A DNA stretch of 64,000 bases from Patescibacteria group bacterium (lineage in GTDB: Bacteria; Patescibacteriota; Microgenomatia; UM-FILTER-40-11): NCBI GenBank assembly GCA_035530075.1, contig DATKVM010000005.1, positions 22,823 to 86,822 on the forward strand, written 5' to 3'. Positions 7,058 to 10,422 of this stretch are shown in pieces (the stretch's first letter is position 1; each line of letters starts with the position of its first letter). The translations under genes were made by a program, and so were the position numbers. The notes below the pieces were generated by a model. That model saw only the letters and a program-made list of their open reading frames with translations, made no database searches and was not told where the DNA came from.

Positions 7058-7066
7058 TGCTATAAT
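7058..7066 (+). promoter_or_regulatory. extended -10 element TGCTATAAT upstream of the Nudix operon
   Basis: Exact TGnTATAAT ~25 nt upstream of the ATG at 7090. The same nonamer precedes rnpB. Confidence 0.4.
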
Positions 7067-7089: not shown

Positions 7090-7473
7090 ATGATTACAAT
7101 ATCCGCGATTTTAATTACTAGTAACGGAAAATATTTATTGGTACAAGAGAATAAACCAGATGATATAGGGTGGACTATTCCGGCAGGAAAAGTGCGAGAT
7201 CAAGAAAGCCCCGAAGAGGGCGCTATTCGAGAGGCTAAGGAAGAAACGGGATTAGAGGTAAAAATTGACGATTTAATTGATACTTTGGAATTTAGTGAGA
7301 AAAATACAATAATGAAAGTCTATAAAGCTAGAGCGATTGGCGGGAATTTAAGGCTAAATGATAAGGAATGCATGGGCATGGGCTGGTTTGACTGGGAAGA
7401 AATTAAACATCTTAGTTTAAGAAGGAAATTCATCAAAGATGTAATTGAAAAGGACATTAATCGTAGGGAGTGA
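7090..7473 (+). CDS. NUDIX hydrolase
   Basis: Nudix box GKVRDQESPEEGAIREAKEETGLEV (Gx5Ex7REUxEExGU). Confidence 0.75.
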   Translation: MITISAILITSNGKYLLVQENKPDDIGWTIPAGKVRDQESPEEGAIREAKEETGLEVKIDDLIDTLEFSEKNTIMKVYKARAIGGNLRLNDKECMGMGWFDWEEIKHLSLRRKFIKDVIEKDINRRE

Positions 7474-7477
7474 TAAT

Positions 7478-8608
7478 ATGGGGAATCCAGAGAAATCACC
7501 ACAAATTACTCAAGAAGAAGTTTTAGAAAAATGGGGTTTGAAACCATTTCCTGTGGGTGAAATATACTCGCCATTACCCGAATCTGCATTCAGTAAGGAA
7601 GTGGGTGAGAAGGTCAGCCAAGTCAGAGTTAGCGTTCCCGGAAGATTAAATTGCTTGATTAAGGACCCTGTTGCCCTTGTAAGAAGAGAAGCGACCGGTG
7701 AATTCAATTATGGAGAAATATCTTTTGGGATAGATTTAATGACACATGCTGAAGCCAGAACAGCTAAGGGGAATAGTATTATTATTGCAGAAAGTACTAA
7801 TCGCCCTAGTTTAGTACGACACTTTGCTGAAATTGTGAGAAAATCTATCGATTATGACGGTGGAATTTATATTGAAGCAAATAACGATTTTCCGTATTCG
7901 CACATTGGGATTGGTTCTTCGGCGGCGCTTGCCACCGCTACGACTTTAGCTATTAATAAACTTACGGGTGAACCCATTAAAACAGAGGCTCTTCCTTTAT
8001 TTTTAGCAAGAAATTATGGCGAAGAAATTGTAGACGACCCCAACCTCCTAGTTCCCGTTCAGTGTACGGGAGGAACTTCCTTAATGGCTTTACATGGCGG
8101 GCTAATAGCTGTAGAAAATAGCGAAGTCGTGCAGAGGATGGAAATCCCAGATGGGCTAAATTATGTATTAGCTATTCCAAGTTTTCCCAGACCAGACGCA
8201 AAAGGTGCTATGGCTAGAGAAATTGATGCCGTTTTTCAGCATATTTTAGAATCTGCTCGACATATGCAACCCTTTTTTGCTCAAAGATTTCAAGAGGTTA
8301 GGAGGGCTATGTCTTTGTCTGATATTAGGGCGGTGGGGAAAGCAATTGAAGAAGTCGATTCAGATGAAGTAATAATGCAGGGGTACGAAAACATGTTTCC
8401 AGGCATTGGCGAACAATACAAAACCGTGAGAGATTCATTGCAAGAATATCAACCAGTTTGTACTTTTATTTCCTCTGCAGGCCCTAGTTTTATAACACTT
8501 TGTGACTCAGAAGTATTGAAGGGAATTATGAACACTCACCATCAGATAGGTTTTCAAGAGGTGATAGCTTCAAAACCAGTTAATCAAGGCTTTAGGTATG
8601 AGAAGTGA
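7478..8608 (+). CDS. GHMP-kinase superfamily protein, beta-ribofuranosylaminobenzene-5'-phosphate synthase-like
   Basis: GHMP motif 2 IGIGSSAALATATT, motif 3-like SSAGPSFITL, and N-terminal VPGRLNCLIKDP resembling the PSRLHFGLID motif of beta-RFAP synthase/MptG-type members. Start moved to the ATG at 7478 behind RBS AGGGAG; the track start 7445 would overlap the Nudix gene. Confidence 0.55.
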   Translation: MGNPEKSPQITQEEVLEKWGLKPFPVGEIYSPLPESAFSKEVGEKVSQVRVSVPGRLNCLIKDPVALVRREATGEFNYGEISFGIDLMTHAEARTAKGNSIIIAESTNRPSLVRHFAEIVRKSIDYDGGIYIEANNDFPYSHIGIGSSAALATATTLAINKLTGEPIKTEALPLFLARNYGEEIVDDPNLLVPVQCTGGTSLMALHGGLIAVENSEVVQRMEIPDGLNYVLAIPSFPRPDAKGAMAREIDAVFQHILESARHMQPFFAQRFQEVRRAMSLSDIRAVGKAIEEVDSDEVIMQGYENMFPGIGEQYKTVRDSLQEYQPVCTFISSAGPSFITLCDSEVLKGIMNTHHQIGFQEVIASKPVNQGFRYEK

Positions 8609-9209
8609 GGTAGAAAGGTATGTTATAACTGGTGCTCCTCGCTCCGGCAAAACCACCGTAGTCAGAGAACTAGGGAAAAGACATAAAACGTTTGAAGAAC
8701 CAGTTGTGAGAGTTGTTAAGCAGCGGGTAGAGCAACTCAAGGGAGATCAACAAATTGATATTCCTAAACACAGCATCCCTCTTGAAATACTTTTTCCTGA
8801 TAAGAGAGAATTCCTTGCAAGTAGTCAAAGACTATTTTTGTTTGATTACGATGAATCCCAAGCATACGATTTATCTTTCTTTGATCGAGGCCTCCCTGAT
8901 CTTATTGTCCTGCATGAGTTGTTAGACGTTCCAATTCCTGCAGATTTAATAGATGTTATTAAGGACCACAGATATAGCAATAGGGTTTTTATTTTTGATT
9001 TATTAGAAAGAGAAATTTTTCAAGAACATAGAAATAAAAGGCCCAATATGTTTAATTCCTATGAAGAATGTTTACGAATTAGAGACAGAATTATGGATGT
9101 ATATCACCAAAGCGGATACTCTATTACTTTAGTTCCTTTTGATTCAGTTGAAAACAGAGAGTTGTTTGTCATGAGAAAGCTTGAAGATAATCTATCAGTA
9201 AAATTTTAA
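8598..9209 (+). CDS. P-loop NTPase, small nucleoside/nucleotide-kinase-like (AAA_28/AAA_33-like)
   Basis: Walker A GAPRSGKTT at residues 12-20. Size and layout resemble small P-loop kinases. Overlaps the upstream gene by 11 nt. Confidence 0.5.
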   Translation: MRSEVERYVITGAPRSGKTTVVRELGKRHKTFEEPVVRVVKQRVEQLKGDQQIDIPKHSIPLEILFPDKREFLASSQRLFLFDYDESQAYDLSFFDRGLPDLIVLHELLDVPIPADLIDVIKDHRYSNRVFIFDLLEREIFQEHRNKRPNMFNSYEECLRIRDRIMDVYHQSGYSITLVPFDSVENRELFVMRKLEDNLSVKF

Positions 9210-9466: not shown

Positions 9467-10237
9467 TTACGCCAACCTTTGAAAAATACAATCTTCTAAA
9501 TTAGCCCTGTAAAAAGCAATCCTTTTCCCAATACATTCTCCGATTAATTTGTTCACATATTTGTCACGGGCGTATTTCCCATTCTCAAATAAAGCATCAC
9601 TTTCTTTTTCCAGTAATTCGTAATATTTGAAGAATTGTTCTATGGGCAAAACAAATGAATCATTTCCTCTAACAAAAGCAAAAATCTCATCATCAGAAAC
9701 AACAACCCCAATCTTATCTCTTTCGACAAGCAGAAAATTCGCAAAATCACCCTCGCTTGGAGGGTTTCCGGTTGGATGAACATGAACAGTCCCGACAAGC
9801 GTTTTACCTTTTTCTACAATGACGTTAAATATATCAAGATAACTTCCCGAATAATCGGCAGGTATTAAAATAAATTTTTTTTGTCCCTTTGTCTTCATTG
9901 GCACACTGTGAAGTTTTTCTCTAATTTCTCCATTCGAAGAATTGGTCAAATCCACAATATCAGTTTCAACCAAAATGACGGTGCCGACACTTAAATCTCT
10001 CAGTTTTATTCTGTTCAAAGGGTCAATAAACAAGACCCCAGAAACTTCTTTTCCTTCCAGATTGGGAATATCAGAAAAGCCTTGAGCTTTTGACCATTTT
10101 TTTAGTGCCAAAAAACCGTATTTTACTTCATCACCTAGATAAAAACGGTCCGGCATTTTTACTACTGACAAATTTTCATCAAGAAACTTGCCGTCAGAGA
10201 TGTTGCCATTTTTTACCTCGGTTTGATTTTCTGGCAT
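9467..10237 (-). CDS. JAB/MPN (JAMM/RadC-like) domain protein with an unknown N-terminal domain
   Basis: C-terminal VHVHPTGNPPSEGD is close to the HxH-x7-S-xx-D JAMM motif but with one residue less. ATG start at 10237; the track starts at TTG 10243. Confidence 0.45.
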   Translation of the reverse strand: MPENQTEVKNGNISDGKFLDENLSVVKMPDRFYLGDEVKYGFLALKKWSKAQGFSDIPNLEGKEVSGVLFIDPLNRIKLRDLSVGTVILVETDIVDLTNSSNGEIREKLHSVPMKTKGQKKFILIPADYSGSYLDIFNVIVEKGKTLVGTVHVHPTGNPPSEGDFANFLLVERDKIGVVVSDDEIFAFVRGNDSFVLPIEQFFKYYELLEKESDALFENGKYARDKYVNKLIGECIGKRIAFYRANLEDCIFQRLA

Positions 10238-10348
10238 ATCCAAATTTTAGCACTTTTTCCTTCGGTTCCTTCGATTTCACCCAGGTCGAGTTCGCTCACC
10301 ACATTTGACTACTTTGGCTATAGCCATGGGCGAACGAAGTGAGTCGAA

Positions 10349-10422
10349 TGGCTGGGAGACTAGGATTCGAACCTAGATGAGATGCTTCAGAGGCACCTAT
10401 CCTACCGTTAGATGATCTCCCA
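10349..10422 (-). tRNA. tRNA-Gln (anticodon CUG), CCA encoded
   Basis: Reverse complement UGGGAGAUCAUCUAACGGUAGGAUAGGUGCCUCUGAAGCAUCUCAUCUAGGUUCGAAUCCUAGUCUCCCAGCCA. Has a U1-A72 acceptor, GGUUCGAAUCC T-arm and anticodon loop CUCUGAA. Confidence 0.8.

Follow-up and report, generated by a model that had tools for sequence, protein, structure and literature searches.

A conserved Nudix–GHMP–P-loop kinase cassette of Patescibacteria with a putative role in making or salvaging a non-canonical ribonucleotide

Methanopterin biosynthesis and the C-nucleoside antibiotics are the only two settings in which GHMP-fold proteins are known to use phosphoribosyl pyrophosphate (PRPP) in place of ATP. Beta-ribofuranosylaminobenzene 5'-phosphate (beta-RFAP) synthase (MptG/MJ1427/MTH0830) and ForT/PyfQ are GHMP-fold, PRPP-dependent aryl or heteroaryl ribotide synthases. 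In ForT, Arg19 bridges the 5'-phosphate and the pyrophosphate of PRPP, His99 and the glycine loop bind the pyrophosphate, and Thr106, Arg135, Ser139 and Ser142 are ligands of the 5'-phosphate; Arg19, Thr106 and Arg135 are essential for PRPP binding, and the pyrophosphate sits where the beta and gamma phosphates of ATP sit in homoserine kinase (PMC8183095). Here we describe a GHMP-fold gene that lies between a Nudix gene and a P-loop kinase-fold gene in a Patescibacteria group bacterium (assembly GCA_035530075.1, contig DATKVM010000005.1, positions 22,823 to 86,822 of the forward strand); this entire stretch of 64,000 nt is referred to below as the window. The three genes form a conserved unit in Patescibacteria, and the cassette probably makes or salvages a non-canonical ribonucleotide. 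More specifically, and with slightly less than even confidence, we interpret the trio as a PRPP-dependent aryl/heteroaryl ribotide synthase, a nucleotide or nucleoside kinase and a MutT-type Nudix enzyme.

The cassette consists of the following genes, with coordinates given in the window.

7090–7473, forward strand: Nudix gene, encoding a small MutT-type Nudix hydrolase of 127 aa (Pfam NUDIX)
7478–8608, forward strand: GHMP-fold gene, encoding 376 aa from ATG (Pfam GHMP_kinases_N)
8598–9209, forward strand: AAA_28 P-loop kinase-fold gene, encoding 203 aa (Pfam AAA_28)

The three co-directional open reading frames (ORFs), with a 4-nt gap and an 11-nt overlap, are as described in the original prediction, and the domain identities assigned there (Nudix, GHMP, P-loop) are backed by Pfam, with E-values of 5.5e-20 for NUDIX, 7.2e-8 for GHMP_kinases_N and 4.5e-19 for AAA_28. 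The corresponding bit scores place the proteins in their superfamilies or families: 72 against a cut-off of 21.1 for the Nudix protein (PF00293), 33 against 22.3 for the GHMP protein (PF00288) and 69.7 against 27, over the full model length, for the AAA_28 protein (PF13521). The longest ORF of the GHMP gene starts from TTG at 7445 and comprises 387 aa, but GGGAG is found eight nt upstream of ATG 7478 and the homologues all align from that Met; the start at ATG 7478 therefore leaves a gap of 4 nt after the Nudix stop. The ATG of the AAA_28 gene at 8598, which overlaps the GHMP stop (8608) by 11 nt, is backed by homologues beginning MRSEVERY or MKREIERY. An identical protein is recorded in the databases as hypothetical, from a Patescibacteria metagenome-assembled genome (MAG).

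Gene neighbourhoods were surveyed by tblastn with the window proteins over 70 related loci from public assemblies. Wherever the GHMP protein is 56–93% identical to that of the window and the contig allows it, a Nudix gene lies directly upstream and an AAA_28 gene directly downstream, and this order is found in all eight independent Patescibacteria lineages (8/8: the window, L027, L029, L031, L010, and the L008, L017 and L005 groups). The members of the trio diverge in parallel, with identities of 84/83/87%, 67/70/66%, 69/72/69% and 56/62/57%, which shows that the trio is conserved as a unit. Its tight packing exceeds chance, because the order and the tight junctions recur in every close homologue; the junctions are overlaps of 4 and 11 nt in L008 and an 11-nt overlap with a 23-nt gap in L005. 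The flanks vary by lineage (a transposase and a glycosyltransferase; a large surface protein and HicA; unrelated small genes), and the AAA_28 subfamily is found almost only within the cassette. Decay is seen in two lineages. In L010 (8001–8855), an in-frame deletion has joined the N-terminal part of GHMP to the C-terminal part of AAA_28 (P0024), and in L017 (5568–7405) and L041–L043 the GHMP gene is frameshifted and the AAA_28 gene truncated; in both lineages the GHMP and AAA_28 genes are thus damaged together, and the Nudix gene is intact. The trio is an accessory, co-inherited module. The linkage of GHMP homologues to Nudix and P-loop partners, to which the original prediction had tied a three-step pathway, holds in this closest clade but not in homologues of about 50% identity, which have other partners. 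L017 is binned as Gammaproteobacteria, possibly through a binning error. The lineage with 62% identity carries a second, larger Nudix gene (177 aa; L005 6769–7302, also in L006 and L007) and a 66-aa ORF just upstream of the cassette.

A search of the literature, including COG1907 and a link between RFAP synthase and phosphoribosylanthranilate isomerase (PRAI), yielded no description of the GHMP family; neither the cassette nor the GHMP clade is described in the libraries and literature searched.

The GHMP protein stands outside the characterised kinases, as had been predicted: of the NCBIfam models, homoserine kinase matches best, with 48.9 bits where 194 are required, and the scores for archaeal shikimate kinase (35.6, cut-off 126.85) and mevalonate kinase (26.5, cut-off 403) also fall short. 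A profile of 19 close relatives has barely any sequence match among solved structures (E about 4e-4). The AlphaFold2 model of the protein (predicted local distance difference test score, pLDDT, 89) retrieves mevalonate kinase, IspE, homoserine kinase, galactokinase, mevalonate diphosphate decarboxylase and ForT with Foldseek at E-values of 1e-14 to 1e-17. By E-value, mevalonate kinase, IspE and homoserine kinase lead (about 1e-17 to 1e-16), whereas the highest query-normalised TM-score, 0.65–0.66, is that of ForT (6yqq, 8aoz), the others scoring 0.59–0.63. The family profile, run against 1.8 billion representatives, recovered 290 clusters at E < 1e-3. Among 89 family members, 70 match the beta-RFAP synthase model NF040726 (best E 2.7e-30) and 79 the homoserine kinase model (best 3.3e-13). 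A profile word-index search with the broad alignment added few new family members; the locus scan used the narrow alignment, the broad one being too diverse. By these scores the GHMP protein is placed in a deep unannotated clade that is about as far from homoserine kinase as from ForT/beta-RFAP synthase.

The peptides singled out in the original prediction (VPGRLNCLIKDP, IGIGSSAALATATT and SSAGPSFITL) are all found in the GHMP translation. Motif I reads VPGR56L, motif II H142-IGIGSSAA and motif III S332-SAGPS; H115 and N179-YG-E182-E are family-specific invariants, and the clade has a conserved N-terminal extension of about 45 residues. In a profile alignment to 6yqq/8aoz, Arg19 of ForT corresponds to Arg56, which is invariant in 89/89 family sequences, and His99 to His142, which is conserved in at least 90% of the 89. 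ForT and RFAP synthase have a His before the glycine loop that, to our knowledge, kinases lack, and it reads as the single clear ForT/RFAP-type signature in the protein. A catalytic Asp of the mevalonate kinase/galactokinase type was not found among the conserved family columns, and the homoserine-binding H-x-D-N motif is absent from the GHMP protein. Taken alone, the sequence would fit a PRPP transferase and an ATP-dependent kinase alike.

The gene contexts of more distant relatives add to the picture. In Thermodesulfobacteriota and "delta proteobacteria" MAGs, homologues of about 50% identity (46–51%) are followed directly by a gene of the PRAI family in about 15/15 loci, with a 4-nt overlap in L025, and in the same loci an O-methyltransferase of the Methyltransf_2 (aromatic) type is encoded upstream wherever the contig reaches. 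Other homologues are found in gut Bacillota.

O-methyltransferase–GHMP–PRAI-like cluster: L002, L013, L014, L025, L026, L032–L040 and L044, for example L025 2880–5776
Bacillota eight-gene operon: L024 3702–12512 (Eubacterium ramulus ATCC 29099); also in L021 (Lachnotalea glycerini DSM 28816)

The PRAI-like protein is divergent: its score is 87 bits, the cut-off being 215, and it has Tyr in place of the catalytic Cys (QIYG), but the catalytic Asp (ILDT) and the C-terminal phosphate-binding motifs are kept. Because of these retained residues, the protein very probably binds a ligand bearing ribose 5-phosphate or ribulose 5-phosphate, and the three-gene cluster looks like an undescribed pathway with a TrpD/TrpF-like logic. 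The cluster in L025 is flanked by LuxE, LuxC and a B12-radical S-adenosylmethionine (SAM) gene. The Bacillota operon encodes an MfnA-like pyridoxal phosphate (PLP) decarboxylase, a U32-like protein, a distant GHMP member, a CobD/HisC-like PLP enzyme, a Cof-type HAD phosphatase, a SAM methyltransferase, a MiaB-like radical-SAM enzyme and a B12-radical-SAM enzyme. An archaeal homologue (L018, 33% identity) likewise adjoins genes for a U32-like protein, a PLP decarboxylase, an AMP-binding enzyme and PRAI. In Aenigmatarchaeota (52–54% identity; L001 5700–11370 and L004 1118–6901), two GHMP paralogues that are 31% identical to each other are clustered with a ribokinase-like PfkB protein, an APH/fructosamine-kinase-like protein, DUF447, a HAD phosphatase, adenylate kinase (ADK) and deoxyhypusine synthase, a gene set that is kept in both contigs despite rearrangement.

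Fusions within the family join the GHMP domain to a SAM methyltransferase (six cases), to PrnB (two cases, P0062 and P0071) and to adenylate kinase (one case, P0167). The known product of PrnB is an aryl-amine. P0062 has, besides the domain resembling PrnB (monodechloroaminopyrrolnitrin synthase), a HEPN/Toprim N-terminal domain. An aromatic or aryl-amine theme is suggested by the recurrence of PrnB, the aromatic O-methyltransferase, the aromatic amino-acid decarboxylase and U32, and a ribose 5-phosphate theme by that of the PRAI-like protein and PfkB. Partners of the nucleotide-kinase fold recur independently, as AAA_28 in the cassette, as the ADK fusion P0167 and as the ADK gene of Aenigmatarchaeota. 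Indirectly, these contexts fit chemistry of the beta-RFAP synthase/ForT type better than that of a plain kinase.

The third protein of the cassette, described in the original prediction as a small P-loop kinase, is indeed predicted to have a nucleoside/nucleotide-kinase fold. Its AlphaFold2 model (pLDDT 87) retrieves thymidylate, adenylate and deoxynucleoside kinases with Foldseek at E about 1e-5, and the highest TM-score, 0.64, is that of the ribosylnicotinamide-kinase domain of NadR (8x7f). The invariant residues comprise a P-loop (G12-APRSGKTT), E34-P-V, D96-R-G-L-P-D and the basic, lid-like R146/K148/R149, an order that parallels that of the catalytic motifs of deoxynucleoside and thymidylate kinases. 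Searches of the PDB by sequence only gave no useful match to any solved kinase, and no NCBIfam model matched. As a single domain of 203 aa, the protein differs from NadR, in which a helix-turn-helix (HTH) and a nicotinamide mononucleotide (NMN) adenylyltransferase accompany the kinase. The Nudix protein has a complete Nudix box in its translation (G32-x5-E38-x7-R46-E47-x2-E50-E51-x-G53, then L54), and its best relatives in PDB and NCBIfam are MutT-like (d)NTP pyrophosphohydrolases, all far below the equivalog cut-offs.

In the mechanism that we tentatively favour, the GHMP protein would not act as a classical kinase; its phosphate loop, with Arg56 and His142, would hold the pyrophosphate of PRPP. 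Ribose 5-phosphate would be transferred to an aromatic or heteroaromatic acceptor X, probably bearing an amine, to give X-ribose 5'-phosphate (X-RMP) and pyrophosphate. The AAA_28 kinase could then act in either of two ways, converting a free riboside (X-R) to X-RMP in the manner of the NadR ribosylnicotinamide-kinase domain or a deoxynucleoside kinase, or converting X-RMP to the diphosphate X-RDP in the manner of a nucleoside-monophosphate kinase. The MutT-type Nudix enzyme would return a di- or triphosphate or dinucleotide form to X-RMP. The comparisons above directly give the domains and folds of the proteins, the obligatory linkage of the trio and the contexts of the relatives; from them we infer that the reaction depends on PRPP, what kind of acceptor it uses and in which order the steps follow.

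Several observations weigh against PRPP as the substrate. The GHMP protein scores far below the curated thresholds of the beta-RFAP synthase equivalog NF040726 (33.2 bits against 328) and of the TIGR00144 subfamily (15.7 against 113.5), so that the affinity to the beta-RFAP synthase branch claimed in the original prediction has the family-wide matches to NF040726 and the TM-score of ForT on its side but not these models; the broad family profile scores homoserine kinase 4p52 (4.9e-14) and ForT (1.7e-13) about equally. Thr106 of ForT is replaced by Ala149, giving a motif II of the kinase type, GSSAA. Gly134-Arg135 of ForT has no alignable counterpart: the profile alignment ends at residue 133, and in the family an insertion with the invariant NYGEE, followed by VQCTGG, occupies the stretch. 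The invariant Glu182 is roughly aligned with the region of the Mg-ATP-binding Glu of homoserine kinase. The position of Arg56 is taken by Lys or Arg in mevalonate kinase and galactokinase as well, and VPGRL, which had been read as a sign of RFAP synthase, is therefore not diagnostic on its own. The CobD/HisC-like enzyme and the HAD phosphatase beside the Bacillota relatives would suit a kinase too, and function may differ between clades that are only 50% identical. The use of PRPP, as originally suggested, is thus favoured by the counterparts of Arg19 and His99 and by the gene context of relatives, but not by the replaced Thr106, the unaligned Arg135 and the kinase-like GSSAA and Glu.

The strongest competing explanation, possible if somewhat unlikely, is an ATP-dependent cascade in which the GHMP protein is a true small-molecule kinase acting, for instance, on an anomeric or primary hydroxyl of a sugar or on an amino-alcohol, the P-loop kinase either attaches a second phosphate or has a nucleoside as its substrate, and the Nudix enzyme hydrolyses the diphosphate. 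The kinase-type GxGSSAA of motif II, a motif III like that of homoserine kinase and Glu182 near the Mg-binding position all agree with such a cascade, as do the homoserine-kinase matches of 79/89 family members and the lead of mevalonate kinase, IspE and homoserine kinase by Foldseek E-value. The HAD phosphatase and CobD/HisC-like enzymes that adjoin distant relatives point to phosphorylated substrates, the adjacency of GHMP and CobD/HisC-like genes recalling the PduX–CobD pair, and the ADK fused in P0167 could recycle ADP. However, the curated kinase models remain far from their cut-offs (49 against 194, 36 against 127 and 27 against 403 bits), the conserved His before the glycine loop is of the ForT/RFAP type, and there is no conserved catalytic Asp of the mevalonate kinase/galactokinase type. 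Furthermore, the invariant coupling to a PRAI-like gene in the sister clade is more simply explained by phosphoribosyl transfer, and a second kinase in the cassette would need a separate role.

The following elements surround the cassette in the window.

7058–7066, forward strand: extended -10-like TGCTATAAT, read from the sequence, 24 nt upstream of the Nudix start codon
6008–6838, reverse strand: very AT-rich upstream neighbour (G+C about 0.28) encoding a 276-aa protein
9467–10243, reverse strand: ORF of 258 aa, convergent with the cassette
10349–10422, reverse strand: tRNA-Gln(CTG) gene

TGCTATAAT, named in the original prediction as an extended -10, is present at that position, but the pattern is not enriched: the window has three copies of TGNTATAAT where 1.4 are expected, and at least three turn up in 17 of 100 shuffles. 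A consensus scan near the cassette revealed no acceptable -35, with promoter-like sites not above chance. TGCTATAAT is for these reasons only a plausible candidate for the cassette promoter. The G+C content between about 5200 and 10300 is 0.28–0.40, against about 0.45 elsewhere in the window, and this stretch is bounded by the tRNA-Gln gene, the 3' end of which faces it. No integrase was present at the low-G+C stretch, and no att-type direct repeat matching the 3' end of the tRNA-Gln gene was found; the foreign island originally proposed thus retains its deviant composition and its position next to a tRNA but has no mobility genes. The C-terminal half of the 276-aa protein matches both the PADLOC candidate defence family PDC-S05 (6e-23) and the model of the VPA1262 N-terminal domain; the protein contains an HxK/D-like stretch, 'HDRYICLDG...GSSLN'. 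The 258-aa ORF has a JAB/MPN-like motif, 'HVHPTGNPPSEGD', and no Pfam or NCBIfam match.

An accessory cassette with variable flanks, lost in some lineages and situated in a low-G+C region next to a tRNA gene, could also serve defence or antagonism: a ForT-like synthase would make a toxic or antiviral nucleotide analogue, the kinase would activate it and the Nudix enzyme would provide self-protection. ForT-type enzymes do make antiviral C-nucleotides (PMC8183095), the upstream neighbour matches PDC-S05 and the Nudix protein matches PDC-S07 (4e-14). We nevertheless regard this role as improbable. PADLOC and PHROG contain no family that matches the GHMP or the AAA_28 protein, the PDC-S07 match probably reflects generic Nudix similarity, the cassette lacks enzymes that would make a special base, and the PDC-S05-like neighbour does not recur at other loci. 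Viral contigs yielded no relatives of the GHMP protein or of the AAA_28 protein; a phage origin, or a role as an auxiliary metabolic gene, was rejected on this ground and for the lack of a PHROG family for the GHMP protein.

The least probable of the alternatives is an NAD-type salvage route converging on NMN, with the GHMP protein as a non-homologous nicotinamide/nicotinate phosphoribosyltransferase, AAA_28 as a ribosylnicotinamide kinase and Nudix as an NAD(H)/ADP-ribose pyrophosphatase: Patescibacteria depend on salvage, Pfam places the ribosylnicotinamide-kinase domain of NadR, which also gives the best TM-score, in AAA_28, and the Nudix protein weakly matches the NAD diphosphatase and NadM-Nudix models, but all these matches are far below their cut-offs (33 bits against 158 for NAD diphosphatase), the Nudix protein lacks the extra domains of NADH pyrophosphatases, the cassette has no NMN adenylyltransferase, the PRAI-like isomerase and aromatic O-methyltransferase of the sister clade cannot act on a pyridinium ribotide, and an accessory, decaying cassette would be odd for an essential cofactor route. 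A mevalonate pathway (mevalonate kinase, an animal-type P-loop phosphomevalonate kinase and a Nudix protein such as isopentenyl diphosphate isomerase) was rejected given the mevalonate kinase score (26 bits against 403), the lack of a conserved catalytic Asp, the full hydrolase box of the Nudix protein and the fact that AAA_28 is not the phosphomevalonate-kinase family; a pantoate kinase in coenzyme A synthesis was rejected as well, such models being unmatched at E < 0.01.

If PRPP-dependent ribotide synthesis is the correct interpretation, the PRPP chemistry of the GHMP fold would be widened considerably, to a third clade of about 290 clusters that has its own invariant active-site motif (NYGEE, His115) and occurs in Patescibacteria, DPANN archaea, Thermodesulfobacteriota and gut Bacillota; unknown aryl-ribotide metabolites would be implied. 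A more far-reaching proposal, which we consider distinctly unlikely, is that the GHMP protein founds a third GHMP branch beside the kinases and RFAP synthase/ForT, dedicated to aryl-amine ribosylation from PRPP or a related pyrophosphoryl-sugar. In Patescibacteria, this activity would be packaged with its own kinase and Nudix enzyme and would yield a non-canonical nucleotide or a cofactor-like ribotide, either needed by these reduced symbionts or used by them against others, and in the sister clade it would amount to a non-homologous replacement of TrpD–TrpF. Most accessory genes of Patescibacteria have no assigned function and this three-enzyme module is strictly co-inherited, which makes it a concrete, easily cloned target for finding what these bacteria salvage or make. 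The wider family is open to experiment through its cultured carriers, Eubacterium ramulus ATCC 29099 and Lachnotalea glycerini DSM 28816.

Compared with the known systems, the GHMP protein shares with ForT and RFAP synthase the fold, with the best TM-score, the Arg of P-x-R-L (Arg19), the pre-loop His (His99) and a motif III of the SS-x-GP type, and the partners encoded beside related clades point to aryl-amine and ribose 5-phosphate chemistry. It differs from ForT in having Ala for Thr106 and, in place of a recognisable Gly134-Arg135 loop, the invariant NYGEE and His115, and from both enzymes in its N-terminal extension of about 45 residues and in scores far below the family cut-offs; unlike their settings, the cassette contains no genes of the methanopterin or formycin pathways. 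With homoserine kinase (ThrB), mevalonate kinase, IspE and archaeal shikimate kinase it has in common the fold, the three motifs, GSSAA and the Glu near the Mg-binding position. Unlike homoserine kinase, mevalonate kinase and galactokinase, it has neither H-x-D-N nor the catalytic Asp and falls short of the curated models, and its context is unrelated to threonine or isoprenoid synthesis. The AAA_28 protein shares its Pfam family with the NadR kinase domain, its predicted fold with thymidylate kinase, ADK, deoxynucleoside kinase and NadR, and the order of P-loop, E-P-V, D-R-x and basic lid with deoxynucleoside and thymidylate kinases, but it stands alone, at 203 aa, with neither the NMN adenylyltransferase nor the HTH of NadR. 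In the sister clade, the translational coupling of a putative PRPP-using aryl-amine ribosyl transferase to a PRAI-family barrel is analogous to TrpD–TrpF, except that the transferase is of the GHMP fold rather than TrpD, the PRAI-like protein has Tyr for Cys, and no other trp genes are nearby. This pairing is absent from the cassette of the window, in which the GHMP protein is instead accompanied by the Nudix enzyme and the AAA_28 kinase.

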